From an uncultured Thermoanaerobaculia bacterium (GTDB taxonomy: Bacteria; Acidobacteriota; Thermoanaerobaculia; Multivoradales; DATKCC01), in assembly GCA_964560325.1 (NCBI GenBank), contig CAZLLV010000561.1, positions 486 to 64,485 of the forward strand: a DNA stretch of 64,000 bases, read 5' to 3'. Each line of letters opens with the position of its first letter. The stretch's first letter is position 1. Shown in pieces: positions 2,290-48,315 of this stretch. Under the pieces are notes generated by a model. The model searched no databases. It was not told the origin of the DNA and worked only from the letters and a program-made list of their open reading frames with translations. Made by a program: the position numbers and the translations under genes.

Positions 2290-2799
2290 ATGCGCGTGTT
2301 CCTGACCGGCTTCATGGGCTCGGGGAAGACGACCGTGGGGCGGCTCCTGTCGGAGCGGCTGGAGCTGCCGTTCATCGACCTCGACCACGAGATCGAGCGC
2401 TGCGCCGACATGACTGTCACCGAGATCTTCCGGCAAGGAGGCGAGCCGCTCTTCCGGCGGCTGGAGCAGGACGTGCTCGCTTCGTGCGTGGCCGCCGAGC
2501 CCGAGTCGGTGCTCGCCACCGGCGGCGGCACCCTCACCGTCGAGCGCAACCGTCGCCTGCTCGCCGACAGCGGCGTCTCGGTCTGGCTCGACCCGCCCTT
2601 CTCGGTCATCACCGAGCGGATCGGCGGCCTCGGAAAGCTCGACCGGCCGCTCTTCCGGGACGCGTCGCAGGCGCTCGAGCTCTACCGCCGGCGGCTGCCG
2701 ATCTACCGCCGCGCGGACCTGCGGCTGGAGGTCGACCGGGAAGAGGCGCCCGAGGAGGTCGCGGCGCGCCTCGCGCTGCTGCTCGAGGGCCGCTCGTGA
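2290..2799 (+). CDS. aroK: shikimate kinase
   Basis: 169 aa with the GFMGSGKTTVGR P-loop and shikimate kinase core motifs. Confidence 0.9.
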   Translation: MRVFLTGFMGSGKTTVGRLLSERLELPFIDLDHEIERCADMTVTEIFRQGGEPLFRRLEQDVLASCVAAEPESVLATGGGTLTVERNRRLLADSGVSVWLDPPFSVITERIGGLGKLDRPLFRDASQALELYRRRLPIYRRADLRLEVDREEAPEEVAARLALLLEGRS

Positions 2800-3539
2800 A
2801 GTACCTCGTGCTGTCGGACATGCACGGCAACGAGGCCGCGCTCCGGGCGGTGCTGCGCCGGGTGCGGCGCAAGCGCTTCGACGCGACGCTGGTGCTCGGC
2901 GACCTGGTGGGCTACGGCGGCGCTCCGAACCAGGTGGTGGAGCTCGTCCGCGAGTTGCCGGGGAAGGTCTTCGCGGTGCGCGGCAACCACGACAAGGTGG
3001 CGGTGGGGATCGACTCGGGCGAGAGCTTCAACCAGGTCGCGCGTCTCGCGGCCCACTGGACCGCCGAGCGGCTGACGCCGGCGAACGCCCGGTCCGTGCG
3101 CGACCTGCCGCGCGGGCCGATGGAGGTCGCCGACGGCGTCGCCATCTGCCACGGCGCGCCGACCGACGAGGACCGCTACCTCTTCTCCGACCGCGACGCG
3201 GCGGAGGTGTTCGTGCAGTGGAACGTGCCGCTCACCTTCTTCGGCCACACGCACGTGACCTCGGTCTTCACTCTCGAAGGGCGGGCGGTCCGGGTGCGCC
3301 AGCTCGCCGGAGAGAGGGGGGAGCTGGCGATCGACCCGGCGCACCGCTACCTGGTGAACCCGGGCTCGATCGGGCAGCCGCGCGACGGCGATCCGAGGGC
3401 GTCGTACATGACCTACGACAGCGACCGGCGGCTGGTGCGCTGGTACCGGCTCGAGTATCCCGTGGAGCGGGCCCGGAAGCGCATCCTCCGCGCCGGCCTG
3501 CCCGAGGTGCTGGCGAACCGCCTGGTCGTCGGGATGTAG
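2796..3539 (+). CDS. metallophosphoesterase (Metallophos_2 / YfcE-like)
   Basis: GTG start overlapping the aroK stop (GTGA). Motifs LVLSDMHGN, LGDLVGYG, RGNHD and FGHTHV are present. Confidence 0.75.
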   Translation: MKYLVLSDMHGNEAALRAVLRRVRRKRFDATLVLGDLVGYGGAPNQVVELVRELPGKVFAVRGNHDKVAVGIDSGESFNQVARLAAHWTAERLTPANARSVRDLPRGPMEVADGVAICHGAPTDEDRYLFSDRDAAEVFVQWNVPLTFFGHTHVTSVFTLEGRAVRVRQLAGERGELAIDPAHRYLVNPGSIGQPRDGDPRASYMTYDSDRRLVRWYRLEYPVERARKRILRAGLPEVLANRLVVGM

Positions 3540-3547
3540 AACGGCGC

Positions 3548-3688
3548 TCCCCTTGTCATCCCGAGCGAGAGCGAGGGATCTGGGGGCGAGGGGGACGCGA
3601 TTCAGGAGCGAGCTTGCCGAGATCGTGCCGTATACCGCGCCACCCCCCGCCCAGGTCCTTCGCTCTCGCTCAGGATGACAGGGGAGTC
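3548..3688. repeat. imperfect long inverted repeat (about 32-nt arms, about 70-nt spacer) between convergent genes
   Basis: Arm 1, cccttgtcatcccgagcgagagcgagggatctg, is the reverse complement of arm 2, caggtccttcgctctcgctcaggatgacagggg, with about 28 of 32 positions matching. The second arm overlaps the 3' end of ccmF. Confidence 0.5.
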
Positions 3689-5961
3689 TGCGATGGGTCC
3701 GGCGTCGGCCGCATCGCCTGGCGCAGGCGGTTGAAGATCGCGAGCGCGCCGCCGGCCAGCACCACGTAGAGCCCGAGCCAGACGAGCTGGATCAGCGGCT
3801 TCTCGGTCACGTCGATCGACAGCGTCGGCGGCGTGCCCTCGGTCGAGAGCCCCGGCGCGCCCTCGACCGCCAGCCGGACCAGCCCGTCGCGCGGAGAGAG
3901 GCCCGCCACCCGCACCGTGCCCCCGGCCGGCAGAGCCGCGGGCGGAGTCGAAACCATCCCGCGCGCCTGGTCGATCTCGTAGAGCGGCAGCACCGTACCG
4001 TCGCCACCCGCCGGGCCCCGCACGTCGAGCTGCACGCCGAGCGTCACGTTGCCCCCGGCCGCCATCTGGGTGAGCGCGTCACCGCCACCCACGCCGAGGT
4101 CGAAGCCGGCGAAGCGGAGCTGATAGTCGCCCACGTCCATCGACTGCCCCTGCCGCAGCTCGACCAGCTTGCCGGCGTCCGCCGGCTCGCCCGGGTCGTA
4201 CTGGAGCGGCGAGACGTAGAAGTCCGCGAGCGGCGTCGTCCGCACGTGCGGGTTCATCATGAGCTGGCCCGACCGCTCGTTGCGGAAGAAGCGCGGGTAG
4301 GAGCGGAAGGTCTTCCCGTCCGCCTCCTCGACGTCGATCACCAGCGTGTCCTTGTCGCGCGGGGAGGTCTTCTCCAGGAAGCCGACGAAGGTGAGCGTCC
4401 GGTCGCCGACCTGGCGGGGCTGATCGAGGGCGAGCGAAACCTTGGTGCTCTGATCGTAGCCGCCGGAGGCGACGAAGCCGAGGAGCATGACGCCGACGCC
4501 GACGTGCGACAGGTACCCGCCGGCCGCCTGCAGACCCTGCAGCCGCGCCTTGGCGATCACCTTGTGGAGGTTCGCCACCAGCGCCGCAAGCGCCAGGAAG
4601 ACGTAGAGGACGTGGAACGGGTCGCGCACCGCGACGATCGCCGCGGCGCTCGTCAGCACGGCGGCGACGGCGAGCGACGGTGCCAGCTTGCGGAACAGCT
4701 TGCCGAGGCTCTCCTCGCCGCGCCAGGTCAGGTACGGCACGACCGACAGGAGCAGCGCGAGCAGGATCGCGATCGGCAGGTTCACCCGGTTGTAGAACTC
4801 CGGCCCCACCTGCCCCGGGTTCTCCATGAACGCGGTCAGCAGCGGCGCCGAGGTGCCGAAGGTGATGACCAGCGCCGAGGCGAAGACGGTGATCGTCGAC
4901 AGCACCACCGCCGTGCCGCGGGAGAACAGCGGGTCCTCGTTCGGCCGGGTCTCGACGCTCCGGAGCCGGGTGGCGAGCAGCACGACCGAGCCGATGCCGA
5001 AGAACGCCATCATGCCGATCAGCCAGCCCGAGATCCCGAGGTCGACGAAGCTGTGGACCGAGAAGTCGGCCAGCACGCCGGAGCGGGTCAGGAAGGTGCC
5101 GTAGAGAACCGCCACGAAGACCAGCGTGGCGAGCACGTAGTTGACCCGCCGGTACCGGTTGCGGGTTCGCTCGAGGTACAGGCCGTGGATCAGGATGGTG
5201 CCGAAGAGCCACGGGATGAGCGAGGCGTTCTCGACCGGGTCCCAGCCCCAGAAGCCGCCCCAGCCGAGCGTCTTGTAGGCCCAGTAGCCGCCCATCAGGA
5301 TGGCGAGCCCGAGGACCATGAAGCCGCCGAGCGCCCAGGGGAACGCCCGGCGCGCCCAGCCCTCGGAGTCCTTGCGCCAAAGCGCCGCCATGGCGAAGGC
5401 GAACGGCACGGCGGCCGACGCGTAGCCGATGAACATGATCGGCGGGTGGATCACCATCCAGTCGTCCTGGAGGAGCGGGTTCAGGCCCTTGCCGTCGAGC
5501 GGCGTCTCCCCGAGCATCACGAAGGGGCTCTCGCGCACCAGGATGAAGAGCAGGCCGATCGTCGTCAGCAGGTAGACGATCATCACCGTCGGCTCCTGCC
5601 GCCGGCCGGTCGTGCGGTAGAGGAGCACCCCGATCAGCACCGCCCAGAAGAGCCAGATCAGAAAGCTCCCCTTCTGGCCGGCCCAGAAGGCCGCGAACTG
5701 GTAGTGGATGGGCAGATCCAGGCCGGAGTACTGGTAGACGTACTCGATCCGGAAGTCCCGCGTGACGAGGGCGAAGCCGAGGACGACGGCCGCCATCACG
5801 ACCGAGAGGGCGTAGCAGTTGTAGGCGCGCCGCGCGAATCGGACGGCGCCGCCGTCGCCGCGGAGCACCAGCGAGTAGCCCCAGAGCGAGGTGAGAGCGA
5901 AGAGGAGCGCGCACCACATGGCGAGCGCCCCCGGCAGGTAGAGGCTGTTCAGGTACTCCAT
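3670..5961 (-). CDS. ccmF: cytochrome c-type biogenesis protein CcmF (heme lyase subunit)
   Basis: 763 aa polytopic membrane protein with the CcmF/NrfE WGGxWxWDPVEN tryptophan-rich motif (WGGFWGWDPVENASL) and conserved His residues. Confidence 0.9.
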   Translation of the reverse strand: MEYLNSLYLPGALAMWCALLFALTSLWGYSLVLRGDGGAVRFARRAYNCYALSVVMAAVVLGFALVTRDFRIEYVYQYSGLDLPIHYQFAAFWAGQKGSFLIWLFWAVLIGVLLYRTTGRRQEPTVMIVYLLTTIGLLFILVRESPFVMLGETPLDGKGLNPLLQDDWMVIHPPIMFIGYASAAVPFAFAMAALWRKDSEGWARRAFPWALGGFMVLGLAILMGGYWAYKTLGWGGFWGWDPVENASLIPWLFGTILIHGLYLERTRNRYRRVNYVLATLVFVAVLYGTFLTRSGVLADFSVHSFVDLGISGWLIGMMAFFGIGSVVLLATRLRSVETRPNEDPLFSRGTAVVLSTITVFASALVITFGTSAPLLTAFMENPGQVGPEFYNRVNLPIAILLALLLSVVPYLTWRGEESLGKLFRKLAPSLAVAAVLTSAAAIVAVRDPFHVLYVFLALAALVANLHKVIAKARLQGLQAAGGYLSHVGVGVMLLGFVASGGYDQSTKVSLALDQPRQVGDRTLTFVGFLEKTSPRDKDTLVIDVEEADGKTFRSYPRFFRNERSGQLMMNPHVRTTPLADFYVSPLQYDPGEPADAGKLVELRQGQSMDVGDYQLRFAGFDLGVGGGDALTQMAAGGNVTLGVQLDVRGPAGGDGTVLPLYEIDQARGMVSTPPAALPAGGTVRVAGLSPRDGLVRLAVEGAPGLSTEGTPPTLSIDVTEKPLIQLVWLGLYVVLAGGALAIFNRLRQAMRPTPDPSQTPLSS

Positions 5962-5980
5962 CAGGTCGGCGATCCGGCTC

Positions 5981-6391
5981 CTAGCCGTACGACTTCGTTT
6001 CGGTCGCGCCCTCTTCGAGACCCTGGTACTTGCTCGGGCACTTGACCAGCAGCTTCTCGGCCTCGAAGGCGCCCGCGTCGGCTGAGTAGCGGCCGATCGC
6101 CACGATCGAGACGGCGTCCTCGAAGTTGGCCGGCTTCAGGCCCTCGTAGCGCACCGGCAGGGTGTCGCCGCTCTCCTCGTCGACCAGCTCGAAGTGGAGC
6201 GCGTGGCTGGTGTCGTCGTACGATGAGCTGCCCTGGCCGAGCCCGCCCGCGACCTGCACCACGCGCTCGGTCGTGCGCGCCTGCTCGAACGGCACGTACG
6301 GCGTCAAGGACTGCTGGAACGAGGCGAGCGCGAAGCCCGAGAAGGCCAGCACGAGCACGCTGCCCAGGATGTAGAGGTGGCTCTTTTTCAT
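5981..6391 (-). CDS. ccmE: cytochrome c maturation heme chaperone CcmE, variant with CxxxY in place of HxxxY
   Basis: N-terminal TM anchor followed by an OB-fold region. The heme-binding position reads LLVKCPSKY, a CxxxY motif. The ATG overlaps the ccmD stop and is preceded by a GGAG RBS. Confidence 0.85.
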   Translation of the reverse strand: MKKSHLYILGSVLVLAFSGFALASFQQSLTPYVPFEQARTTERVVQVAGGLGQGSSSYDDTSHALHFELVDEESGDTLPVRYEGLKPANFEDAVSIVAIGRYSADAGAFEAEKLLVKCPSKYQGLEEGATETKSYG

Positions 6392-6555
6392 CGGATCTCC
6401 GCCTTTCCGTCGGCACGCGGCTTCCACGCGCCCTCGAGCGTCCGCACCTTGCGGCCGAGCCGCAGGAGGTAGAGGAACAGCCCGGTCCAGATCAGGAAGT
6501 TGACCGCCGCGAAGGCAGCCTTGACCGCGGTCGAGATGGTGTTGGCGTCTTCCAT
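6388..6555 (-). CDS. ccmD: heme exporter protein CcmD (55 aa)
   Basis: Translation MEDANTISTAVKAAFAAVNFLIWTGLFLYLLRLGRKVRTLEGAWKPRADGKAEIR has a single TM helix. It sits between ccmC and ccmE, and its stop overlaps the ccmE start. Confidence 0.55.
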   Translation of the reverse strand: MEDANTISTAVKAAFAAVNFLIWTGLFLYLLRLGRKVRTLEGAWKPRADGKAEIR

Positions 6556-6571
6556 TAGCTTACAGAGCTCC

Positions 6572-7270
6572 TCAACCGGCCCGATCGGCCGCAGGATTCC
6601 TCTCGAGGCGGCCGGCCTCTTCCCGGTCCGCGAGGACGGCCACTCGGGTTGCCAGACTGTGGACCCAGAAGAATAGCACCGTAAACCCGAGCGAGGCGGC
6701 GAGCAGCAGATAGAGGATCTGCGGGTCCATGCCCACGTCCATCTCTTCGTTGATCACCGGCTCCGGGTGCAGCGAGTCGAACATCCGCGGCATCACGAAG
6801 AGCAGGAACGGCGCGACCACCAGGCCGAGGACGGCGTAGGCGCCGGTCACCCGGCCCCGCACCTCCTGGTCGGCGATCTGGTCGCGCAGCGCGAGGTACG
6901 CGGCGTAGTAGACGAGCAGCATGGTGATCGAGATCTGCCGCGGGTCCCAGTTCCAGAAGGCGCCCCACTCGACGCGCGCCCAGATCGAGCCGGAGAGGGT
7001 CGCGAGCAGGCAGAAGACCAGTCCGAGCCCGATCGCCGTGGCGGCCGCCAGGTCGTGCCGGCGATCCCGTCCCTTCAGATAGCGGATGCTCCAGATCCCG
7101 GCGGCGCAGAAGGCGATGAGCGACGTCCACGCCATCGGCACGTGGAAGAAGAGGATGCGGGCCGACTCGCCGCCGCCGACGAACCCCTGCATCCGGGGCG
7201 CGCCCACGTAGGCGAGGACGACGCAGGCTCCGATCCAGAGCCAGAGGAACCATGGAAGAATCTGTCGCAT
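6572..7270 (-). CDS. ccmC: heme exporter protein CcmC
   Basis: Real start is MRQILPWF at 7270. The ORF-track N-terminus is an R/A/G-rich artefact. WGxxWxWD-type motif present (WGAFWNWDPRQ), with six TM helices. Confidence 0.85.
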   Translation of the reverse strand: MRQILPWFLWLWIGACVVLAYVGAPRMQGFVGGGESARILFFHVPMAWTSLIAFCAAGIWSIRYLKGRDRRHDLAAATAIGLGLVFCLLATLSGSIWARVEWGAFWNWDPRQISITMLLVYYAAYLALRDQIADQEVRGRVTGAYAVLGLVVAPFLLFVMPRMFDSLHPEPVINEEMDVGMDPQILYLLLAASLGFTVLFFWVHSLATRVAVLADREEAGRLERNPAADRAG

Positions 7271-7368
7271 CGGGTGTTCTCTCAAGGTGCGTCCCGGGGG
7301 CAGGACGTGACGGTATCGCGTCGGACGGCCGCGTGCACCACCCCACGGGACGGGGCGCCGGCCGAGCC

Positions 7369-8055
7369 TCAAGGGTTCCAGATGACCGGGAAGAGCATCA
7401 GCCCCGCCACGGTCAGGGTGGCATCGTACAGGACCAGAGCCTGCATCTCCTCTCCCGGCGGCTCGCCGGCGACCGCCGCGCGGGTGAGCTGGACGGCGAA
7501 GAAGAGCCCGGGCACCAGCACGGGTAGCAGGAGGACCGCGAAGAGCGCGCTCTTGCTGCGCGCTTGCGCCACCATCGCCGCCACCAGGGTGCTGCCCGCG
7601 GCGAGGCCGTAGCCGCCCGCCGCGAGCGCCGCCACCAGCAGGAGCGGCCGGCGCGCCTCGAGCTGGACCATCGCCAGGAAGAGCGGCGTGATCAGCGCCT
7701 CCAGCAGCAGCACGACGGTCAGCCCGTAGAGGAGCTTGCCGGCGAAGAGCGCCGACGGCGTGGCCGCGAGCCGCAGGGCGGTGGCGGTGTGAGTCTCCTC
7801 CTCGGCCACGAAGATCCGCGGCAGACCCGCGGTGACGGCGAACAGCACGATCAGCCAGAGGACGACGGGCAGCACCGTGACCGCGATCTGCGGCACGGTG
7901 CCGAGCGAGCCGAGCACCAGGCTCACCACCACGAGCGTGGTGAAGGCGAACAGGCCGAGGGTGTTCAAGGCATAGCGGGTGCGGTACTCGCACCGCCAGT
8001 CCTTGACGAAGACCGCCGCGGCCTCAGCCGCCCAGCGCGAGGCGCGACCGGACAT
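7369..8055 (-). CDS. ccmB: heme exporter ABC permease CcmB
   Basis: 228 aa, six TM helices, located between ccmA and ccmC. Starts MSGRASRW at 8055. Confidence 0.8.
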   Translation of the reverse strand: MSGRASRWAAEAAAVFVKDWRCEYRTRYALNTLGLFAFTTLVVVSLVLGSLGTVPQIAVTVLPVVLWLIVLFAVTAGLPRIFVAEEETHTATALRLAATPSALFAGKLLYGLTVVLLLEALITPLFLAMVQLEARRPLLLVAALAAGGYGLAAGSTLVAAMVAQARSKSALFAVLLLPVLVPGLFFAVQLTRAAVAGEPPGEEMQALVLYDATLTVAGLMLFPVIWNP

Positions 8056-8668
8056 TCGGGATCTCCAGTGGACCGGGGTTGGCGACGACGGCGAGACCGC
8101 CGCCTTCGAGGTGGCGCGCGAGCAGCTCGGTCCCCTGGTCGATGCCGGGGCGGTCGAGGTTCTGGAACGGCTCGTCGAGGAGCAGCAGACGGGGCCGCGC
8201 GAGGAGCGCCCAGGTCCACCGCAGGCGCTGGCGCATGCCGGACGAGAGCGCCCCCGCCGGCCGGTCGTGGGGGAGACCGACCAGGTCGAGCAGCTCGCCG
8301 GCGCGCGACTCCGGCACATCGCGGAGGCGGCAGAAGAAGCGAAGGTTCTCGAGCGTCGTCAGCTCCTCGTAGAGAGCGAGGTCGGGCGCCACGAAGCCGA
8401 CCGCTCGCCGGCGCGCCGCGATGTCGAGCGCCACGCCGTCCTCGCGGTACTCCACCGTGCCGCGCTCCGGGGCGAGCAGCCCGGCGAGCACGCGCAGCAG
8501 CGTCGACTTGCCCGAGCCGTTCGAACCGACCACCAAAAGCGCCTCCCCCGGTCCCACTTCGCCCGACACCCCCGTCAGCACGTGAAGCGGCCCGAACCTG
8601 CGGTGCAGGTCGTCGAAGAGCAGGTGAGCGGACGCATCGGCGGAGGGCACGGGCCGGGAGCGTAGCAA
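8024..8668 (-). CDS. ccmA: heme exporter ATP-binding protein CcmA
   Basis: Walker A GSNGSGKST, ABC signature LSSGMRQR and Walker B LLLLDEP. Overlaps the ccmB start. Confidence 0.85.
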   Translation of the reverse strand: MLRSRPVPSADASAHLLFDDLHRRFGPLHVLTGVSGEVGPGEALLVVGSNGSGKSTLLRVLAGLLAPERGTVEYREDGVALDIAARRRAVGFVAPDLALYEELTTLENLRFFCRLRDVPESRAGELLDLVGLPHDRPAGALSSGMRQRLRWTWALLARPRLLLLDEPFQNLDRPGIDQGTELLARHLEGGGLAVVANPGPLEIPNVRSRLALGG

Positions 8669-8690: not shown

Positions 8691-8978
8691 TCAGGCGGCC
8701 GAGAGAGGGCGCACCTTCAGACTGCCGCGCTTCTTCTCGGCCTGCCAGAGGTCGTACTGGATCTGCTGAGCGAGCCAGCTCTCGGCTGTGGTGTCGAACG
8801 CCACGGAGAGCCGCACCGCCATCTCGGGGCTGATGCCGGCGCGGCCGTTGAGGATCGCGGAGAGGGTCTTGCGGCTCACGTCGAGCGCGCGGGCGGCCTC
8901 GGTCACGGTCAGGCCGAGCGGCTCCAGGCAGAGCTCGCGCAGGACCTCGCCGGGATGCGGTGGATCGTGCATCTGCAT
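8691..8978 (-). CDS. higA: HigA-family antitoxin (XRE-type HTH)
   Basis: 95 aa: [50 protein letters not shown]...YDLW. Lies immediately downstream of the toxin gene. Confidence 0.8.
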
Positions 8979-8989
8979 GCTCTTCACCT

Positions 8990-9271
8990 CTAGTGGTAGT
9001 CCTCGTAATCGACGCGGTCCACGTCGTCGCCATCGAACTCGAAGGTCACCCGCCAGTTGCCGCTCACCACCACCGACCACCGGCCCTTCCCGCTCCCTTT
9101 GAGCGCGTGCAGCCGGAGCCCGGGCAGGTCCATGTCGCGGGGCTCGTTCGCGACGGCGAGACGACCGAGGATCAGGCGTAGTCGCTTCGCATGCTGCGCC
9201 TGGATCTTGGCGGTGCTTCCGCGCGTGAAGAACGCTTCGAGGCCCTTGTGCCGGAAGCCGCGGATCGCCAT
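8990..9271 (-). CDS. higB: HigB-family toxin (RelE/ParE superfamily plasmid maintenance killer)
   Basis: 93 aa: [38 protein letters not shown]...GNWRVTFEF. Toxin-first HigBA gene order. Confidence 0.8.
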
Positions 9272-9353: not shown

Positions 9354-11474
9354 GTGCCCACCTCCTCGCGCCTCCTCGCCGTCGCTCTCCTCTCCACGCT
9401 CGCCTGCTCCGGCGCGCCGCGCGCCGCCACATCTCCGGCGGCACCGGAGCCGGACGGCGAGGCGATGCGGGCGGTGCTCCTGTCGCTGGTCGACCAGCAG
9501 CTCTACGAGCCGACGATCGTGCGGCGGGGGCTGGTGGGGCCGACGGAGGTCCGGCGGGCGACGGCGGTGGCGGTCGGGCGGATCGGCGACCCGGACGGGC
9601 TGGAGGCGCTCTACGCGCTGCTCGCCGACGACGACGTGGAGGTGCGGCGAGAGGCGGCGTTCGCGATCGGCGAGGTGATGGAGGCGCCCGAGCTCCTGGC
9701 GACCGGGGGCGAGGCGCCGGAGGCCAGGGTGCGCGCCGCGGCCCGACTGCTCGACGCCGTCGGCGATCCGGACCGCGACGTCGGCCGCCTGGCGGTCGAA
9801 GCGCTCGGCAAGGGCGGCGTTTCGATCGCGACGGTGGCCGAGCGGCTGGGCGGGATCGAAGACGCGGCGGAGCGGTGGGCGCGGCTCCTGCCGGGGCTCT
9901 TCCGCTATCCGGAGCCCGCGTCGGTGGCGGTGGCGGCCGACTTCCTCGTCAGCGAGACCGCCGCCGACCCCGAGCTCCACCGCTGGGCCGCCTACGCCCT
10001 CACCCGGGAGCCGCGGCCGGAAGCGGTGCCGCACGTCCGCACCCTCGTCGCCGACGCCGACCCGCGCATCCAAGCCTGGGCAGCGCGGGCGCTCGGCCGG
10101 ATCGGCGACGCCTCCGACCTGCCGCGGCTCTTCCTGCTCCTCGCGTCCGACGACGCCGGTCCGGTCGTCCACGCCCTCCGCTCGGCCCGCGCGCTGGTCG
10201 ACGCGAGCGGCGAGGAGGCGCCGGCCGCGTGGCGCGGACCGCTCGGGCAGCTCGTGGCGGACCCGCGGCCGGGCGTGCGGGTGACGGCGATGGAAGCGTC
10301 GGCCGCCTGGCTGCCGGACGAGACGCTCGGGAGGGCGCTGGCGCGGATCGCCGGGGGCGACGACACGGCCTGGGAGCGGGGCACCGCGCTCGTCGCCCTG
10401 GCCGTGGGCGGTGATCCGCGGGCGAGCGGCCTGGCGGCCGAGCTGGCCGGGTCGGACGACGAGACGCTCCGGGCGTACGCGGCCGAAGCCGCCGGGGTCC
10501 TGGAAGAGGAGGACCTGCTGGCGATCCTCGCCGACGACCGGCGCGCGCGGGTGCGCCAGGCGGTCCTGGCGGCGCGTCTGGCGCTGACCGGCGAGGAGGG
10601 CGCCGAGGGTGCGGCTCGCGAGCTCGCCCGCGCCGCGCTCCGCGACCCCGACGCCGGCGTGCGGACGACGGCGCTCGGCTGGCTGGTCGACCGCCCGGTG
10701 CTGACGGTCCCGGAGGTGGGCGCCGCCTTCGCCCCGGCATCCGCCGCGGCATCCGCCACAGTCCCAGGGGCACCTGTCGAGCGGACGGTCGAGGAGCTGC
10801 TGACCGCGGTCGACGCGCTGGCGGCCCTGGCGGCGGACGCCGCCGCGGAAGCCGACGACCCGAGGTCCGCCCTGGAGACCGACCCCGCCGTCGGCCTCTT
10901 GCTGGCGGTCACCGACACGGCCGAGCTGCCGGTGCGCCGACGCGCGGCCGAAGCGCTCGCCGCGCTCGGTCTGCCGCGGCCCGACCCGGGGCACCACCCG
11001 ACGCGACTCCCACCCGCCGTCTACCGCAGCGTTCTCGAACAGGCCGCCGCGCCGCGCACCGTCGAGATGGTCACCCGGCGCGGCGCGGTGACGATCCGCC
11101 TCGACTGCCCGCGGGCGCCGCTCACCTGCCTGAGCTTCCTCCAGCTCGTCCGCCAGGGGTACTACGACGGCCTCGCCTTCCACCGGGTGGTGCCCGACTT
11201 CGTGGTCCAGACGGGCGACCCGCGCGGCGACGGCTGGGGCGGACCGGGCTACACGATCCGCGACGAGATCGGCCGCCTCCGCTACGGCCGCGGTGTGGTC
11301 GGCATGGCGCTCGCCGGCCCCGACACCGGCGGCAGCCAGCTCTTCGTCACCCTCGCGCCGCACCCCCACCTCGACGGCGGCTACACCGCCTTCGGCGAGG
11401 TGGTCGAGGGGATGGAGGTGCTCGACGAGATCCGCCAGGGGGACCGGATCGTCACGGTCCGCGAGGTGCCGTGA
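9354..11474 (+). CDS. lipoprotein with HEAT-like repeats and a C-terminal cyclophilin-type peptidyl-prolyl isomerase domain
   Basis: Lipobox LSTLACSG, then repeated HEAT/PBS-lyase-like helical units. The C-terminus [25 protein letters not shown]...[21 protein letters not shown] is a cyclophilin PPIase. Confidence 0.75.
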
Positions 11475-12589
11475 CGACCGTCCTGGCGCTCGGGGTCGGG
11501 GCGGTCTTCCTCGCCCTGGCGCTCCGGGTCGACCGGTGGCGGAGGTACGCGCCGCCCCTCGCCCCGGCGGACGGCGCGGCGGAGGAGCAGGGGGCGGTCA
11601 CCGTGCTGCTGCCGGCCCGGGACGAGGAGGGGAACGTCGAAGCGTGCGTCCGCGGGCTGCTGGCGCGAACGGGCGAGCCGCCGGTCCCGGCGCGGGTCGT
11701 GGTGATCGACGACGGCTCCGAGGACCGGACGGCCGAGATCGTCCGGCGGATGGCGGCCGAGGAGCCGCGGGTCGAGCTGGTCGCGGCGCCGCCGCTCCCC
11801 GCCGGCTGGAAGGGGAAGGTCCACGCCCTCGAGACCGGCCTCGGCCTCGTGGAGACGCCCTGGCTCCTCTCGACCGACGCCGACACCCGGCACCACCCCG
11901 ACCTGCTCGCCCGCGCCCTCGCGACCGCCCGCGAGCGGCGGCTCGACTCGCTCTCGGTCACCGGCTTCGAGGAGGCGTGCGGCCCGGGGGAGAACCTGGT
12001 CACGCCGGTCGTCTTCGCTCTTCTCGACGCGCTGCTCGGCGACTGGGGACCGGCGGCGGCCGGCGAGACCGAGATCGCGAACGGGCAGTTCTTCCTGGTG
12101 CGGGCGGCCGCCCTCCGCACCGCCGGCGGCTTCGCCAGCCTGCGCAGCGCCGCCCTCGACGACGTGACCCTCGCCCGGACACTGCGCGCCGCCGACTTCC
12201 GCCACGGCTTCCTGCGCGCGCCGGAGCTGCTGCGCGTGCGCATGTACCGAGGTTTCCGCGCGACCTTCCGCGGCTGGCGCCGCAACCTGGGCGCGATCTT
12301 CGCCGGCCGGCGGCGCGACGCGGCGCTCGTCCTCTCGGCGCTCCTCGCCCCGCCGGCGCTGCTCGCGGCGCTGCTCCTCGGCGGGCACGGCCTCCCGGCG
12401 CTCCTCCTCTGGGCCTGCGGCGCAGCCGCGTCGGCCGTCCTCCGGCGCGGCAGCGGCCACGCGCCGGCCTACGGTCTTCTGTACCCCCTGGACGCCCTCG
12501 TCACCGGCTCCTGCCTCGCCCTCGGCCTGCGCGACGCGGCACGCGGCGCGCTCGCGTCCTGGAAAGGTCGCCCCGTGCGGCTCGAGTAG
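11471..12589 (+). CDS. glycosyltransferase family 2
   Basis: [14 protein letters not shown] and [10 protein letters not shown] motifs (DxD-type GT-A fold) with C-terminal hydrophobic segments. GTG start overlaps the upstream stop. Confidence 0.7.
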
Positions 12590-12696
12590 GAGCGTCACGA
12601 AACTCCAGAATGCCGGCACTTACCGTGTAACCGTCGAACAACCTCCCGATCCCATCGCGGCGGCCCGCCCGGGCCGCGAGGAGCCTCTTCCCTTTC

Positions 12697-13617
12697 ATGA
12701 ACGTCCCGCTCGCGCCCAATCGGCCGAACTTCTTCATCGTCGGTGCCCCCCGGTCCGGAACCGGTTCGCTCTACCTGTACCTGAAGCAGCACCCGGAGGT
12801 CTACGTCTCCCTGCTCAAGGAGCCGCAGTTCTTCGGCGCCGACCTGGCGCGCAACCCGCCGGGCATCCGCGACGAGGACGTCTACCTGGAGCTGTTCGAG
12901 CTGGGGAACGACCGGCCGCTTCGGGGGGAGGCGTCGGTCTGGTACCTGTCGTCGCTCCAGGCCCCGTACGAGATCCGCGCCTTCTCGCCCGAGGCGAAGA
13001 TCGTGATCCTGCTGCGCGAGCCGGCGGAGATGGCCTGGTCGCTCCACGCGCTCCACGTGCAGAACGGCGACGAGAATCTCACGGGCTTCGAGGAGGCGCT
13101 CGCGGCGGAGCCCGCGCGGCGAGGCGGCCGGAGTCTCCCGGCGGGCACGCCCGCCGCGGAGGCGCTGCAGTACGCGGAAGCCGCGCGCTACGCGCCCAAG
13201 GTGGAGCGCTACCTCGACGTGTTCGGCCCGGAGAACGTCTGCTGCGTGCTGTTCGACGACCTGGTGCGCGACTCGGGGATCACCTGTCGCCGGGTGCTCG
13301 AGTTCCTGGGCGCCGACCCGGAGCTCCGCGTCGAGCTGGACGCGGAGCGGGCGCGCGAGCGGGTTCGGATGATGGTCGCGCGGCAGCTCCGGAGCGCTTC
13401 GCCCGAGGTGCGGCGGCGGGTGCGATGGGAGCAGGCGCGGCGACACGAGAGTCCTCCGCGCTCGCCGCTCGACCACCGAGTGGCCGCGCGGCTCCGGGAG
13501 CGGCTGGCCGGGGACACCCTCTGGCTGGGCGAGCTGATCGGCCGCGACCTCTCGCCGTGGTTGCGCGGGGAGCGGGTGGGGGTGGCGCAGGTGGCGGGCT
13601 CCGTGGCCGAGGCGTAG
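12697..13617 (+). CDS. sulfotransferase family protein
   Basis: 5'-PSB motif FIVGAPRSGTGSL and a 3'-PB region, as in PAPS-dependent sulfotransferases. Confidence 0.8.
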   Translation: MNVPLAPNRPNFFIVGAPRSGTGSLYLYLKQHPEVYVSLLKEPQFFGADLARNPPGIRDEDVYLELFELGNDRPLRGEASVWYLSSLQAPYEIRAFSPEAKIVILLREPAEMAWSLHALHVQNGDENLTGFEEALAAEPARRGGRSLPAGTPAAEALQYAEAARYAPKVERYLDVFGPENVCCVLFDDLVRDSGITCRRVLEFLGADPELRVELDAERARERVRMMVARQLRSASPEVRRRVRWEQARRHESPPRSPLDHRVAARLRERLAGDTLWLGELIGRDLSPWLRGERVGVAQVAGSVAEA

Positions 13618-26135: not shown

Positions 26136-26582
26136 TCACTCGGCCTCGGCGGTCTCCGTGGCCCCGGCCTCCTCGGACGGCGTCTCCACGCTCTCCGGCC
26201 GGTCGCCGCTCGGTGAGCAAGAGCCGGCGGTGGCACCGCCGCCGCACGAATCGGTGGGGGTCGCGGCCCAGTACGCCGGATCGTCCGCCGACGGCACCAC
26301 CTCGGCGCTGAAGCCACCGCCACAGCCCCAGGCCGGGGAGCAGTAGTAGCACTGACAGCAGCAGCACTTGGCGCAGCGGATCTGGTCCCGTCGGCACTGC
26401 CGCGCACAGTCATCGTACGCGGGGTCGGTCTCCGGCGGGCAGGAGGACAGGCAGTCGGCGTAGTCGAGGTAGCAGAAGCAGTCGTCGCCGCTGCACTGGG
26501 CCGCGGCGGGAGGTGGCCCGGCGAGCATCGCCAGAGCCCCGACGACCATCACGGAGAACACCAACGACGTCTTGGAAAGCAT
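26136..26582 (-). CDS. small secreted cysteine-rich protein (17 Cys, includes a CCCC run)
   Basis: Real start is MLSKTSLVFSVMVVGALAMLAGPPPAAAQ (signal peptide) at 26582, with AAAGGAGAGGAG upstream. The mature region reads CSGDDCFCYLDYADCLSSCPP...CAKCCCCQCYYCSPAWGCGGG. The tail is acidic. Confidence 0.55.
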   Translation of the reverse strand: MLSKTSLVFSVMVVGALAMLAGPPPAAAQCSGDDCFCYLDYADCLSSCPPETDPAYDDCARQCRRDQIRCAKCCCCQCYYCSPAWGCGGGFSAEVVPSADDPAYWAATPTDSCGGGATAGSCSPSGDRPESVETPSEEAGATETAEAE

Positions 26583-26860
26583 GCGCTCCTCTCCTTTCGT
26601 CAGATCCTGACGGCGGCCGCCTCGAGCGGCCGGCGATCGCGGGAGAGAAGTCCGCCGCGCTCTCGGCACGACTCGAGCGAATCATCGATCTTCACGACCT
26701 CCGCCCTGATCGAGTGATTCACTGTGGCCGGACATACCATTTGACGGCCCCGACCGCGGAGCAACCAGTTGTCACTTCACCGTGCGTTCCGCCGGCCGCC
26801 GCATTCGCCCGCCGTCTGCGGTAAGGTCCGGCGCGCACCGAAAGGGAGGAGCACGACGCG

Positions 26861-27712
<852 letters not shown>

Positions 27713-27990
27713 CGCGGTTGTGGTGAGCCGGGGGTTCTGAGAGACTAGGAAACGCAGAGGAGACGAGCATCGAGCTCATCGGCGGCAAAGTTTTCTGTCA
27801 GGCGTGTGGCGCGCCCAACCCGGACGAGCAGGAGTACTGCGCCCGCTGCCACCAGAAGCTGCTCGTCCTCTCCGGCGCGCTCGGCGGCGAGGAGCCGGAG
27901 GAGGAGAACCTCGAGGAGCAGTTCTCGTTCGACGAGCACCTGCTCGAGCGGATCTCGATCCTGGAGGAGGCGGTCAAGCGCACTGCCGAG

Positions 27991-44117: not shown

Positions 44118-46133
44118 CTACCCCAGCTCCTTCAGGATAGCGTCCGCGGCCTTGAGCGCCAGCGCCGCCAGAGTCAGGGTGGGATTCGCCGTCGTGATCG
44201 TCGGGTAGTTGCCGCTGCCGACCATGAACAGGTTGGGGTGGTCCCAGGAGCGTTGGTCGGCGTCGAGCACGCTGTCCGAGGCGCTGGTGCCCATGACCGT
44301 CGTGCCCACGACGTGGCCGGAGCCGAAGTACTGGAAGCCTTTCGGCACCCCGTTCGCCGACTGGGGCAGGTTGGTGACCTCCGGGGTCTTGAGCTCCGGC
44401 GGCAGGTCTTCGAAGATCTTGCGCCACTCCGGCTTCAGCGGGAACCACTTCGGGTTCGCGACCAGCTCGCCGTCCGCCCCTTGCACCTCGGCGACGTTCT
44501 GGACGTAGCTCCGCACACCCATCCGCTGGTAGACCTGGCGGGCGAAGATCTCGGCGTAGACGAAGCCGAGCTTGGTGTAGTCCGACAGGTCGTAGTGGAT
44601 CACCGGACGGGGCAGGCCCAGCCCGTCGGTGAGGCTCCCGCCGCCTTCGAGGTCGGTCGAGAGGGTGACCCGGTTCGACCGTTCGGCCGACTGCTCCACC
44701 AGGAAGCCCATCCGCCACTGGCGGGTGAAGGCGTCGTTGAGCTTCGCCACCAGCGCGTCGCCGAAGAGCTGCTGCCCGTTCGGGTTGAGCTGGCTCGCGT
44801 TCGTGCCGTTCACGAAGTCGCCGACGGTGGTCCACGGATCGCCGATCGAGAAGTTCCAGCCCTCGTTGCCGATCTCGACCCGCCACGCCGCCCGTTCGGA
44901 GCGGAACGGCCCGTCGCGCAGCGTCTCGATGCCGCTGGTCGAGAGCGGGCCGCGGAAGCCCCAGGCCGGCTGAGGGAAGAGCGACCAGGTGAGGTAGAGC
45001 GGGTGATCCATCAGGTTCCGGCCGACCATGTCGGAGGAGTTGGCGACGCCGTTCTCGAGGCCGGCCTGATCGCCCCGCCGGGACATGAGGAGGAGCTTCG
45101 GGGTCTCGATGGCGTGGGCCGCGAGGACGTAGAGGGTGCCGGTGGCGGTCGCCTCGGTCTTGGTGATCGTGCCGCCGTCCTGCTGCCACTTCAGGTACTC
45201 GATCCCGGTCACGGCGCCGTTCTCGCCCACCACCACACGGGTCGCGACCGCCTGCGGGATCACCGTGGCGCCCGCCTGCTTCGCCTCCGACAGGGTGACG
45301 GTACCGTCGTACTTGGCCTGGATCGGGCAGATCGGGATGCAGTTGGTGTTGCCGGCGCAGGTGCGGCGGCTGTCGAAGGGCTGGCTGTTGCGCCCCTGGG
45401 GCGTCGGTGTGACCTTCGATGCCTGGTCCGGGGGGAACCCGACGTAGCCGGTCACGCCGTCGACGCTCGCCGCCACCGCGTCGTCGACCAGCGTGAGCGG
45501 GATCTCCTGCATCGGGTACTGGTAGTCCTTCGGCTCGTACTCGAGACCGATCGAGCCGAGGTCCTGCTCCTGGACCCGCGCATCCGCCGCCACGCCGATC
45601 GACTCCTCGGCCCGGTCGTAGTAGGGCAGCAGCGCGTCGACCCCGAACGGCCAGTCCCGCTCCACGCCGTAGACGCTCTCCATCTCGAAGTCGTGCTCGA
45701 GGAAGCGGAGGCTGGTGCCGAGCCAGTGCCAGGTGGTGCCGCCGGCCACCCTCTCGTAGGTGCTGGCGAAGGGGTGCGGACCCTTCTGGAGGAGGTAGCT
45801 CTTCGTCGGGTCGTAGATGAAGGCGGTCGGGTCGGTCTTCACCTTCTCCGGCCAGCCGGGCTCGACGTTCGAGCCGAAGGTGGCGAAGATGGTGGCGCGC
45901 GGCGTCGCCTCCTCGAACGGGTTCGAGCCTTCGAGGGGCGGGTAGGGGCTCTCCGGCGTCTTCGCCGAGGCGAGGAAGAAGTTCTCCAGGTAGGCCTCGC
46001 GGTTCGTGGGGGGCGTCTCCGGCCCGGCTTCGAGGATCAACACGCTCTTGCCCGCCTTGGCGAGCTCGCGCGCGACCAGGGTGCCGCCGATGCCGGCGCC
46101 GACGATGACGACGTCGTAGTGCGTGCCGCTCAC
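44118..46133 (-). CDS. GMC-family FAD-dependent oxidoreductase
   Basis: N-terminal DVVIVGAGIGGTLVARELAKAG FAD motif and GMC C-terminal domain. The GTG start overlaps the upstream gene's stop (GTGA). Confidence 0.9.
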   Translation of the reverse strand: MSGTHYDVVIVGAGIGGTLVARELAKAGKSVLILEAGPETPPTNREAYLENFFLASAKTPESPYPPLEGSNPFEEATPRATIFATFGSNVEPGWPEKVKTDPTAFIYDPTKSYLLQKGPHPFASTYERVAGGTTWHWLGTSLRFLEHDFEMESVYGVERDWPFGVDALLPYYDRAEESIGVAADARVQEQDLGSIGLEYEPKDYQYPMQEIPLTLVDDAVAASVDGVTGYVGFPPDQASKVTPTPQGRNSQPFDSRRTCAGNTNCIPICPIQAKYDGTVTLSEAKQAGATVIPQAVATRVVVGENGAVTGIEYLKWQQDGGTITKTEATATGTLYVLAAHAIETPKLLLMSRRGDQAGLENGVANSSDMVGRNLMDHPLYLTWSLFPQPAWGFRGPLSTSGIETLRDGPFRSERAAWRVEIGNEGWNFSIGDPWTTVGDFVNGTNASQLNPNGQQLFGDALVAKLNDAFTRQWRMGFLVEQSAERSNRVTLSTDLEGGGSLTDGLGLPRPVIHYDLSDYTKLGFVYAEIFARQVYQRMGVRSYVQNVAEVQGADGELVANPKWFPLKPEWRKIFEDLPPELKTPEVTNLPQSANGVPKGFQYFGSGHVVGTTVMGTSASDSVLDADQRSWDHPNLFMVGSGNYPTITTANPTLTLAALALKAADAILKELG

Positions 46134-46828
46134 GACCGGCCCCCTTCTTCGGTAGCCGCGGTCTCCGGGGCGGCGGCGAAGTCGGACGGGCTCCGTCCCC
46201 CCTTGCCCTGCCCCAGCACAGAGAGGGCCGGCCGTAGCGGCGCGGCGTCGATCGTCTCGGCCGCGGCGGCGGTTCGCAGCGACGGTGGCGACTGTGGCGA
46301 GGGCGGCGGGTTGCCGGTGAAGTCGGAGAGCGGCGGCGGCTCCTTCGTCCAGTAGCCGTAGGTCCAGGGGCTGTAGCCCATGGCGTGGCTCTGCATCACC
46401 TGCCAGGCGAGCCCGCGGATGTACGCCTGGTCGCTGACGACCGACTCGAAGGCGCCCGGCTCGATCGGGTACCAGTACCCCAAGTACCAGAGCCGCATCA
46501 CCGAGCGCGCGGCGGCGGCCCGCGCCTCGCTCCCTGAGGAGCTGCCGGGGTCGAGGAGCTGCTCGCCGATCGTCCGGCGCTCCTCGGCGCTCATCTCGGA
46601 GACCGGCTTGCCGCCGGCGATCTCCTGGGCGAGCTTCGCGTACAGGGCGAGGAGGTCGTCGAAGGCCGCGCCCGCGCCCTGCTGCGCGGCGTCGAACAGC
46701 GTCTGCTTCAGGTTCACCGGGTCGAGGCTGGGGGCGATGGTGCCGGCGGCGAAGCCGGTGAGGAGCGCCGACATCTGCACGAAGTCGTCCATCGCCGACG
46801 AGCCGCCGGTCGGGGTGGGATCGCTCAT
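46130..46828 (-). CDS. hypothetical protein, possible small partner subunit of the GMC oxidoreductase
   Basis: 232 aa, aromatic-rich (WYLGYWY, SPWTYGYW). Translationally coupled on both sides. Weak resemblance in size and position to gluconate 2-dehydrogenase subunit 3-family proteins, but it has no Tat signal. Confidence 0.45.
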   Translation of the reverse strand: MSDPTPTGGSSAMDDFVQMSALLTGFAAGTIAPSLDPVNLKQTLFDAAQQGAGAAFDDLLALYAKLAQEIAGGKPVSEMSAEERRTIGEQLLDPGSSSGSEARAAAARSVMRLWYLGYWYPIEPGAFESVVSDQAYIRGLAWQVMQSHAMGYSPWTYGYWTKEPPPLSDFTGNPPPSPQSPPSLRTAAAAETIDAAPLRPALSVLGQGKGGRSPSDFAAAPETAATEEGGRS

Positions 46829-48315
46829 CACTGGGCCCTTTCGAGGAGGTAGGTGAAGTCGGAGAAGCTCTCCTGCCCCTCGGCCATGGTGGCGTTCAGG
46901 TGGCAGTGCGTGCAGCTCGACGAGGCTTGGGGCACGGTGCCCTGGATGTAGGTCTCGAGCGTGGTGTTGCCCAGGAACGCGGGCGCCGGCCTGCCGGTTT
47001 CGTCCACCGGGTTCAGCGGCTTGCACCAGTTGTTGGCCGCCGACGGCGCGGTCGGGTCGGAGCCGCTCGCGTCGGTCGGCCACTGGGTCGAGATCAGCTC
47101 GTAGTGCTGCCAGACGGTGCCGCCGAGGAGGCCCTGGACCTTCGCGTTCAGATCCTTCGTGGCGGCGGTGATCGGGATCTGCCGCACCACCTGGCTCTTG
47201 CCGGCGTTCGAGGTCACCGGCTGGAGGTGCGGGTCCCAGGGCTGGGGCGGCGGCTCGTTGACGGCGTTGCAGTCGTCGCAGCCGACCTGGTAGAAGCTGT
47301 AGCTCCCCGGCTCGGTCTCGTGCCCCCGGGTGGGCACGTTGTCGACCTGCTCGAAGGTCGCCCAGAGCCACTGCGGGTCGTTCTGGGTCTTGGTCACCAG
47401 GTGGAGGCCGACCAGCCCGAGGAGTCGCCGGTCGCAGGTCGTCGGGCCTTCGCCGGTGGCGGGGGTCAGCACCAGGGCGTCGGTCTTGTGGAAGCGGGAG
47501 GGATCGTCCCCGGCGGCGGGGTCGAGCACCTTCCAGGCGCTCTTGACCATGATCGCGCCCTGCTGGCCGTCCTCGGGGCAGGTCTCGCCGTTCGGGTCGC
47601 CGTCGCAGCCGCAAGGGAACTCGACCCTTTTGCCGGCGGCCGCGAAGGCCGCCTGGCCGGCGCGGCTGTAGAGATCGTTGTCCCGGATGTACTGGTACAT
47701 CGGCCGGTTGACGGTGATCCCGAAGCGGGCGTAGTGGCCGTTCACGTCGATCAGCGGGCCCGACTCGAACGGCTCGAGCGCGGCCTCGAAGACGATCGGC
47801 TGCTTGCCCACCTGGACGAAGACCCGCTCGCCCGCCTCGCCCTGGCCTTCGCAGGCGGGCGGGAGCGGGGCGTGGGGCGGCGGCTGGCCAGCGGGCCAGT
47901 CGGGAGGCTCGGCGCCGCCCGCGAGGAACAGGTCCCCCTCGTTCGGCCAGCTCTCCCAGAGGGTCACGTTGTCGCCGTCCCGGTCGCCGAAGCCGCCGGA
48001 GGGGCTGTGGGAGAGGGCGAGGAAGCTGTTCCAGGAGAAGACGTCGAAGTCGCACTGGAGACTGTCGAGCGTGATCGTCTGCTGGAACGTCGGGGTCTTG
48101 GGGAGATCGGTCCCCACGGTCACCGGCTGGGGCGTTCCGCCGCAGACGACGTCGACGGAGGAGGATGGGGTGCCGCTCAGCTCCGCCATCGGCTCCTCCG
48201 GCCGGACTCCGGGGTCCGCGGGGCCGGCGGTCCGGCCACAGCTCACCGCGAGCACCAGCAGCGCGGCGAGCACCGCGGTACCGGTCGAGCCCGCACGCCG
48301 AAACGGCTCTCTCAT
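46828..48315 (-). CDS. Cys-rich lipoprotein with a single C-terminal CXXCH heme c-binding motif
   Basis: Lipobox LAVSCG and about 15 Cys. The only heme motif is SSCTHCH, 20 residues from the C-terminus. First gene of the GMC operon. Confidence 0.55.
   Translation of the reverse strand: MREPFRRAGSTGTAVLAALLVLAVSCGRTAGPADPGVRPEEPMAELSGTPSSSVDVVCGGTPQPVTVGTDLPKTPTFQQTITLDSLQCDFDVFSWNSFLALSHSPSGGFGDRDGDNVTLWESWPNEGDLFLAGGAEPPDWPAGQPPPHAPLPPACEGQGEAGERVFVQVGKQPIVFEAALEPFESGPLIDVNGHYARFGITVNRPMYQYIRDNDLYSRAGQAAFAAAGKRVEFPCGCDGDPNGETCPEDGQQGAIMVKSAWKVLDPAAGDDPSRFHKTDALVLTPATGEGPTTCDRRLLGLVGLHLVTKTQNDPQWLWATFEQVDNVPTRGHETEPGSYSFYQVGCDDCNAVNEPPPQPWDPHLQPVTSNAGKSQVVRQIPITAATKDLNAKVQGLLGGTVWQHYELISTQWPTDASGSDPTAPSAANNWCKPLNPVDETGRPAPAFLGNTTLETYIQGTVPQASSSCTHCHLNATMAEGQESFSDFTYLLERAQ

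Follow-up and report, generated by a model that had tools for sequence, protein, structure and literature searches.

A probable System I* cytochrome c maturation operon with a cysteine-type CcmE in a Thermoanaerobaculia-like acidobacterium

In a 64,000-nucleotide stretch of DNA (the window), six contiguous genes, ccmABCDEF, probably form a functional System I* operon of a Thermoanaerobaculia-like acidobacterium, a reading that we put at about 85% from the sequence. System I* is the name given to the Cys-type Ccm system by Stevens et al. 2011 (PMC3601427), and it is a published variant (Allen 2006; Goddard 2010). The earlier note had likened the cluster to the variant Ccm systems of Desulfovibrio and archaea, and this likeness holds: CcmE carries Cys in place of His, and the cluster lacks ccmG and ccmH. 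The cluster is therefore of a type already described, real but ordinary, and an extra beta-domain in CcmF is its sole mildly unusual feature.

Six ccm genes on the minus strand

Profile matches to Pfam and NCBIfam families identified all six genes at 3670-8668 on the minus strand, which bears out the contiguous ccmA-ccmF cluster proposed earlier from the letters alone.

8024-8668, minus strand: ccmA, 214 aa, ABC-type ATPase of the complex that releases the heme chaperone (TIGR01189 and PF00005)
7369-8055, minus strand: ccmB, 228 aa, membrane subunit (PF03379, E 6e-17)
6572-7270, minus strand: ccmC, 232 aa, heme-handling WWD protein (PF01578, TIGR01191)
6388-6555, minus strand: ccmD, 55 aa, 'CcmD_alt'-type small protein with a single helix, between ccmC and ccmE
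5981-6391, minus strand: ccmE, 136 aa, Cys-type heme chaperone with a membrane anchor and an OB fold (PF03100, E 3e-18)
3670-5961, minus strand: ccmF, 763 aa, heme lyase / holocytochrome c synthetase (PF01578 and PF16327)

The CcmAB ABC module expected of a System I is present, with the Walker A, signature and Walker B motifs of CcmA at residues 48, 141 and 161, respectively, and the CcmB permease. CcmA scored marginally above the cutoff of TIGR01189 (132.5 versus 131.6 bits), and CcmB reached 62 bits against PF03379 (cutoff 24.9). CcmC contains His43 and His168, with the WWD motif WGAFWNWD starting between them at residue 102; the alignment to E. coli CcmC (7F02_C) preserves the WGxxWxWD pattern along with the two His residues, where we take the counterparts to be His60, the WWD motif and His184. 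The small protein encoded between ccmC and ccmE matched the System I family TIGR04391 (CcmD_alt) with 26.6 bits (cutoff 24), and its score of 18.9 bits against Pfam PF20077 was under the cutoff. Most NCBIfam scores for CcmB, CcmC, CcmE and CcmF fell under the equivalog or subfamily cutoffs because these proteins have diverged from the proteobacterial models.

The genes had been described as joined by overlapping stops and starts. This is correct for two of the five junctions, ccmA/ccmB (32 nt, as in the related locus L001) and ccmD/ccmE (4 nt), but the other three are gaps of 98, 16 and 19 nt. The gene order ccmABC(D)EF is kept in relatives, the layout of the operon being strictly conserved across the clade; for very distant Cys-type CcmE proteins, the contigs were too short to inform on gene context.

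The region downstream of ccmF and the search for partner genes

Two features lie at the 3' end of ccmF.

2796-3539, plus strand: metallophosphoesterase gene, convergent with ccmF
3545-3690, no strand: inverted repeat that forms a long hairpin (about 146 nt) where the 3' ends of ccmF and the phosphoesterase gene converge

The convergent gene and the hairpin thus stand where ccmG, ccmH and ccmI might have followed ccmF, and the three genes are absent there, in accordance with the earlier note. The inverted repeat pairs an arm at 3555-3578 with one at 3656-3679, leaving 2 mismatches, where 0.01 such matches are expected by chance, and the minimum free energy of its RNA is -104.5 kcal/mol (z = -8.3). 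It had been placed beyond ccmF; it does exist beside the convergent gene, but it reaches into ccmF and takes in the stop codon and the codons just before it. The repeat is probably a bidirectional terminator or stabiliser, or else a small palindromic repeat element; in this region, scans for Rfam families, terminators and promoters returned no matches.

For CcmH and CcmG, the absence reported here applies to the cluster, to the whole 64 kb and to the 10 kb on either side of ccmE in 82 relatives. A motif scan found no ccmG-, ccmH-, ccmI- or ccsBA-like gene in the window, nor in the surroundings of ccmE in those relatives, and neither the LRCxxC motif of CcmH nor the WCxxC motif of thioredoxins occurred in coding-like frames of the window and the 82 related loci. 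The window encodes two WWD proteins, CcmC and CcmF, and hence no CcsA; a System II CcsA/CcsB pair was not found in the 64 kb, the matches to TIGR03144 being far under the cutoff. We also looked for ccmH, ccmI or ccmG just 3' of the cluster in farther relatives, where ten downstream ORFs proved to belong to unrelated Pfam families (alanine dehydrogenase, metallo-beta-lactamase, M13 peptidase, MFS, mechanosensitive channel) or to no family.

These results have to be weighed against the alternative that only the clustering is non-canonical, and that CcmH, a TlpA/ResA/CcmG-like thioredoxin and CcdA/DsbD are encoded elsewhere and work with CcmF. About one third of the bacterial genomes with a Cys-type CcmE still encode CcmH (PMC3601427), and the absence of CcmH is therefore not characteristic of the variant. 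The CcmG and CcdA homologs of Methanosarcina acetivorans sit outside its ccm loci (PMC9084895), and our search covered 64 kb of this genome. What speaks against partners encoded elsewhere, besides their absence from all the regions scanned, is that the Desulfovibrio and Methanosarcina systems function without CcmH (PMC3601427, PMC9084895): the Desulfovibrio System I* introduced into E. coli matured cytochromes c without CcmH or CcmG (PMC3601427), and CcmABCEF suffices for maturation in M. acetivorans (Gupta et al. 2022, PMC9084895). On balance, we regard elsewhere-encoded partners as quite possible, if short of likely.

CcmF and its extra periplasmic domain

The lyase residues of CcmF are P-His1 at 172, the WWD motif from 234, TM-His1 at 259, P-His2 at 303 and TM-His2 at 486. 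As expected of a System I protein, the alignment to T. thermophilus CcmF (6ZMQ, E 2e-60) preserves each of the four His residues as well as the WWD motif. The E. coli counterparts, presumably His173, His261, His303 and His491, have nearly equal numbering. The protein also contains a domain that is absent from T. thermophilus CcmF.

3796-4194, minus strand: extra all-beta periplasmic domain of CcmF, approximately aa 590-722, about 130 residues

The predicted structure of this domain is confident (pLDDT about 90), and the domain is kept in 61 of 79 relatives. It contains no cysteine, and no fold match to CcmH or thioredoxin was found for it. The CcmF frames of farther Cys-type relatives are longer still (stop-to-stop ORFs of 840-875 codons), and a system with 38% identity has a called CcmF of 761 aa. 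The conservation of the domain, the longer frames and the confident model would be consistent with the enlarged periplasmic domain having taken over apocytochrome handling from CcmH and CcmI, and if this were true, the clade would therefore need no CcmH. We consider such a takeover unlikely, and give slightly less credence still to the proposal that the beta-domain is an adaptation letting CcmF bind and position apocytochromes without CcmH or CcmI in the large Cys-CcmE clade of Acidobacteriota and allies; CcmF with its beta-domain would then be a System I synthetase that is self-sufficient as a single subunit.

Two NrfE models, TIGR03145 and NF007691, match CcmF as well, as might be expected if the cluster were not a general maturation system but an NrfE-like lyase system specialised on a non-standard heme motif. 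However, the scores are far under the cutoffs (293 versus 927 bits for TIGR03145 and 239 versus 394 bits for NF007691), nrfF, nrfG and nrfA are absent nearby, the operon has ccmABCDE and with it the complete module for heme delivery, and the two candidate cytochromes of the window carry standard CXXCH motifs. A specialised lyase is accordingly very improbable, and general maturation by System I* is the reading that we retain.

A cysteine at the heme-attachment position of CcmE

The assignment to System I* depends on one codon of ccmE.

6038-6040, minus strand: TGC codon of CcmE Cys118, which corresponds to E. coli His130 at the site of heme attachment

Cys118 is the sole cysteine of the protein and lies in the motif LLVKCPSKYQG. 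In phmmer alignments it falls on His130 in the K-H-D-E-N-Y segment of the Shewanella (1J6Q) and E. coli (8CE8_E) proteins and on the heme-binding Cys of Desulfovibrio vulgaris CcmE (2KCT), while Tyr122 corresponds to the conserved Tyr134. The column is occupied in the same way in the alignment to 1SR3, and the protein is thus not a His-type CcmE. The best-scoring solved relative is D. vulgaris 2KCT, at low identity (E 8e-4). These alignments to HxxxY and CxxxY proteins confirm the earlier claim that the canonical His is replaced by Cys.

Two observations had been named in advance as fatal to this claim, a misaligned Cys and an error at its codon, and neither was made. We rejected the possibility that the true heme ligand is a His close by, since Cys118 lies exactly on His130 and the motif aligned to the heme-binding loop contains no His. 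The CxxxY motif of System I* is invariant in the clade, with KCPSKY present in all of the 120 closest database homologs and in 82 of 82 related loci; Cys118 is therefore not a sequencing error. The notion that the cysteine is a sequencing or assembly error, or that the operon is decaying, has practically no probability left, being already refuted by this invariance, and all ccm reading frames are intact, with GC3 values of 0.91-0.97 and the catalytic residues kept. CPSKY is the majority motif of System I* CcmE (PMC3601427). A CcmE identical to that of the window is not on record in public assemblies, the nearest being 93% identical.

Distribution among Acidobacteriota

Close relatives of the LVKCPSKY type were found in at least 490 species-level genomes, mainly of Thermoanaerobaculia and Holophagae (Acidobacteriota), and at least 133 of the best 150 representatives of 50%-identity clusters are of the Cys type. 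The description of the variant as rare is not borne out by these counts. The guess of an acidobacterial host was right, the best genome matches being Thermoanaerobaculia MAGs. The suggestion that the finding extends the distribution of the variant is valid only with respect to the published lists consulted, which comprise delta-proteobacteria, Chloroflexi, Firmicutes and archaea, and public annotation already labels these acidobacterial proteins as CcmE. Literature searches for Acidobacteria or Acidobacteriota with CcmE or CcmF yielded nothing relevant.

By these counts, Acidobacteriota of the Thermoanaerobaculia and Holophagae type normally mature cytochrome c through the Cys-type System I*, which is far commoner than the early literature implied; this corrects the impression of rarity. 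The practical consequence is small and no new mechanism is revealed; the hundreds of natural sequences could serve for studying how the presumed Cys-heme thioether of CcmE is broken and how CcmF would act without CcmH.

Proposed maturation pathway and candidate substrates

Two proteins in the window are candidate substrates.

63136-63786, plus strand: mono-heme cytochrome c with the lipoprotein signal LSLAGC and one CNDCH motif
46828-48315, minus strand: lipoprotein-like protein of 495 aa that carries a CTHCH motif in its C-terminal part

The former matches PF00034 with 26.6 bits (cutoff 21.3); the latter has no Pfam match, and its adjoining gene matches GMC oxidoreductase families.

By homology with the Desulfovibrio and Methanosarcina systems, we infer the following steps. 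CcmC would hold heme b between His43 and His168, on its WWD loop in the periplasm, and present it to the membrane-anchored CcmE, where Cys118 would capture a heme vinyl group, presumably as a thioether as opposed to the His-N bond of E. coli, with Tyr122 as the likely axial ligand. The covalent character of this step is not certain, because in vitro the Cys of D. vulgaris CcmE reportedly bound ferric heme non-covalently (PMC3884852). The Cys of the CXXXY motif is required in M. acetivorans (Gupta et al. 2022, PMC9084895). Holo-CcmE would then be released by CcmAB and the small CcmD-like protein, driven by ATP hydrolysis, and dock on CcmF, whose WWD loop (His172, His303) would take the heme and whose transmembrane b-heme (His259, His486) would reduce it. 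The E. coli CcmE variant H130C binds heme but does not pass it on (PMC9084895), and the downstream chemistry of a Cys-type system must therefore differ. Finally, Sec-exported apocytochromes, possibly including the lipoprotein cytochrome c at 63136-63786, would have the heme ligated to their CXXCH motif, presumably with no operon-encoded CcmH, CcmI or CcmG taking part.

Comparison with known systems

The cluster shares with the canonical System I of E. coli and Rhodobacter the homologous proteins CcmA-F and the WWD motifs and His ligands of CcmC and CcmF, and differs from it by Cys118 in place of His130 in CcmE and by an operon without ccmG and ccmH. Like the System I* of D. desulfuricans and D. 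vulgaris, it has CcmABCD and CcmF in an operon lacking ccmH and ccmG. Unlike that system, it resides in a Thermoanaerobaculia-like member of Acidobacteriota and not in Desulfobacterota, its CcmD is of the 'CcmD_alt' type and its CcmF is enlarged by the beta-domain of about 130 aa in the periplasm. No CcmI-like gene was seen nearby here, whereas the Desulfovibrio System I* is enhanced by CcmI (PMC3601427). With the Ccm system of M. acetivorans the cluster has in common a CXXXY-type CcmE and, as far as the window extends, the absence of CcmH and CcmI. M. acetivorans has no CcmD, a ccmF split into ccmF1 and ccmF2, and dispersed genes; in contrast, the acidobacterial system has a ccmD and a single ccmF, and unites all six genes in one operon.

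Organization of the ccm operon

Six co-directional genes with a high third-position GC of 0.91-0.97 occupy positions 3670-8668 of the minus strand. Their identities, assigned by Pfam and NCBIfam, bear out the ccmA-ccmF cluster proposed in the earlier note.

Features of the ccm operon and its downstream neighbour
8024-8668, minus strand: ccmA (TIGR01189, 132.5 bits, above cutoff)
7369-8055, minus strand: ccmB (PF03379)
6572-7270, minus strand: ccmC (PF01578, TIGR01191)
6388-6555, minus strand: ccmD of the 'CcmD_alt' type, 55 aa (TIGR04391, above cutoff)
5981-6391, minus strand: ccmE, 136 aa, start MKKSH (PF03100)
3670-5961, minus strand: ccmF, 763 aa (PF01578 and PF16327)
3796-4194, minus strand: extra all-beta periplasmic domain predicted in CcmF, residues ~590-722, compared with Thermus CcmF
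2796-3539, convergent: metallophosphoesterase gene, downstream of ccmF

The genes are densely packed, but the overlapping stops and starts that had been described are found at only two of the five junctions, ccmA/ccmB (32 nt) and ccmD/ccmE (4 nt), the other three being gaps of 98, 16 and 19 nt. The convergent gene and inverted repeat noticed beyond ccmF are both present: at the point where ccmF and the metallophosphoesterase gene converge lies a near-perfect hairpin of ~146 nt (3545-3690), whose arms include GTCATCCCGAGCGAGAGCGAGGGA at 3555-3578 and its inverted copy at 3656-3679, and whose right arm codes for the final codons and stop of ccmF. The hairpin RNA has an MFE of -104.5 kcal/mol (z = -8.3), has no Rfam match and occurs as a single copy pair within the window; a palindromic repeat element and a bidirectional terminator are both possible readings.

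The order ccmABC(D)EF is kept throughout the related loci fetched around ccmE homologs. A Tara Oceans contig with a 65% identical CcmE shares much flanking gene content with the window, namely HEAT-cyclophilin upstream and metallophosphoesterase, shikimate kinase and SNF transporter downstream. In the window, the gene adjoining ccmA (9354-11474, plus strand) encodes a predicted lipoprotein of 706 aa in which HEAT repeats are combined with a cyclophilin-type PPIase domain at the C-terminus, and it adjoins ccmA in 28 related loci as well. Since shikimate kinase and phosphoesterase, unrelated genes on the downstream side, show equal synteny, the arrangement probably reflects shared gene order and not a functional connection. 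On the ccmA side of this gene, directly upstream of ccmA and on the same strand, is a toxin/antitoxin pair (8691-9271, minus strand) made up of a gene for a HigB-like toxin (8990-9271, PF05015) and one for an HTH antitoxin (8691-8975, PF01381). The pair is missing at the equivalent place in two relatives, L001 and L003, and therefore looks like a recent insertion, which may now lie in the ccm promoter region.

The heme-binding cysteine of CcmE

Three lines of evidence from sequence comparison indicate that the only cysteine of CcmE, Cys118 within LLVKCPSKYQG, sits at the heme-binding position. In phmmer alignments with solved structures, K-C-P-S-K-Y falls on K-H-D-E-N-Y of the Shewanella (1J6Q) and E. 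coli (8CE8_E) proteins, which equates Cys118 with His130 and Tyr122 with Tyr134. Among solved relatives the top score goes to the Cys-type CcmE of Desulfovibrio vulgaris (2KCT), whose Cys pairs with Cys118. Every one of the 120 closest homologs in the database (60-93% identical) carries KCPSKY, as do 82 of 82 related loci and, of the 150 representatives of 50%-identity clusters that are most similar, at least 133. The replacement of the canonical His by Cys is thus borne out, the alignments ruling out a misplaced Cys and the conservation ruling out a sequencing error at its codon.

Absence of ccmG, ccmH and ccmI

The reported lack of ccmG, ccmH and ccmI from the cluster also held, motif scans finding none in the operon, the window or up to 10 kb either side of ccmE in 82 relatives. 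A six-frame CxxC/CxxCH scan of coding-like frames in the 64-kb window gave no thioredoxin-type WCxxC and no LRCxxC, and scans for CxxC-, WCxxC- and LRCxxC-type motifs gave nothing credible in the 82 loci. Ten ORFs 3' of ccmF in more distant relatives belonged to unrelated families or to no family, with no ccmG, ccmH or ccmI among them. That the operon and its surroundings lack these genes is hence a property of the clade. No WWD proteins besides CcmC and CcmF occur within the window, which is therefore without CcsA. Ten further ORFs of the window that encode multi-pass membrane proteins were scanned, and those matched by Pfam are transporters, not CcdA or DsbD (two of the ten were unmatched).

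The extra domain of CcmF

The CcmF protein is ~100-115 residues longer than that of Thermus (660 aa) or E. coli. Its alignment with T. thermophilus CcmF (6ZMQ) stops at residue 589, leaving 174 residues as against ~50 in Thermus. Across the Cys-CcmE clade the extra domain is conserved, being present in 61 of 79 relatives. The CcmF reading frames of more distant Cys-type systems span 840-875 codons from stop to stop, and the called CcmF of one of these systems has 761 aa. As the domain contains no cysteine at all, a fused redox module of the CcmH or CcmG kind is ruled out. That the domain makes up for the missing CcmH or CcmI is pure speculation and very improbable.

In L083, a distant Cys-type locus whose CcmE is 38% identical, three genes come after ccmF in the direction of ccmF (10675-13405): one resembling sirohaem synthase, one for glutamyl-tRNA reductase (hemA) and another member of the Cytochrom_C_asm family (263 aa). 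This arrangement links Ccm to heme biosynthesis genes; nothing like it occurs in the window.

Candidate substrates

Two genes in the window encode candidate substrates.

63136-63786, plus strand: mono-heme cytochrome c with a lipoprotein signal and CNDCH (PF00034, above cutoff)
46828-48315, minus strand: 495-aa lipoprotein-like protein with 13 Cys and a C-terminal CTHCH (by motif; no Pfam match)

Directly downstream of the second is a GMC-family oxidoreductase gene (44118-46133, minus strand), and together the two products may make up a dehydrogenase that has a novel cytochrome subunit. A third CxxCH motif in the window scan, at 27838, lies within a run of plain Cys pairs. A putative ORF at 26136-26669 (minus strand), in ~790 nt without another assigned gene, would encode a small protein that begins with a hydrophobic segment, signal-peptide-like by eye, and continues into a strongly cysteine-rich region (…CAKCCCCQCYYCSPAWGC…).

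Distribution and relation to known systems

The operon belongs to the known System I*, and its identification as a Cys-type variant was correct. Allen et al. (2006) described the variant, and Goddard et al. (2010) demonstrated its function for the D. desulfuricans system; the name comes from Stevens et al. 2011 (PMC3601427), who list it for delta-proteobacteria, Chloroflexi and Firmicutes, with CPSKY as the majority motif (25 of 36 bacterial genomes). About a third of Cys-CcmE genomes retain CcmH (PMC3601427), so a missing CcmH is not diagnostic.

Calling the variant rare was an overstatement. Scanning one genome per GTDB species gave at least 599 pattern matches, at least 490 of them confirmed as relatives, a word-index search for CcmE homologs 2837 matches and an exhaustive search 1264 cluster representatives (E<=0.001), which makes the variant common. 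Among the best 80 of the at least 490, nearly all are MAGs of Acidobacteriota (Thermoanaerobaculia, Holophagae/Holophagales, Sulfomarinibacteraceae and others), alongside one example each from Terriglobia, KSB1 and Zixibacteria; the closest among the GTDB-species matches listed is a Thermoanaerobaculia MAG (69% identity). Source annotations (JGI, NCBI) already label these proteins CcmE. We found no paper discussing Ccm in Acidobacteria in the searchable literature collection, and the phylum accordingly adds to the published lists; the distribution is extended to this degree, but not by a new kind of system.

In its motifs, the machinery besides CcmE is intact. CcmC retains His43, WGAFWNWD and His168 (alignment to E. 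coli CcmC), CcmF retains P-His1 172, WWD from 234, TM-His1 259, P-His2 303 and TM-His2 486 (alignment to 6ZMQ, E 2e-60), and CcmA has its Walker A, signature and Walker B motifs. By analogy with System I* and archaeal CcmABCEF systems, CcmC would present heme, CcmE would take it via Cys118 with Tyr122 as ligand, CcmAB(D) would release holo-CcmE at the expense of ATP, and CcmF would reduce the heme and join it to apocytochromes at CXXCH. It is uncertain whether the bond between Cys and heme is covalent in vivo, since heme binding by D. vulgaris CcmE was non-covalent in vitro (PMC3884852). The models for this mechanism are D. desulfuricans System I* and archaeal CcmABCEF, which is sufficient for maturation and requires the CXXXY Cys (Gupta et al. 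2022, PMC9084895), and the one departure of the operon from the textbook system is the extra domain of CcmF.
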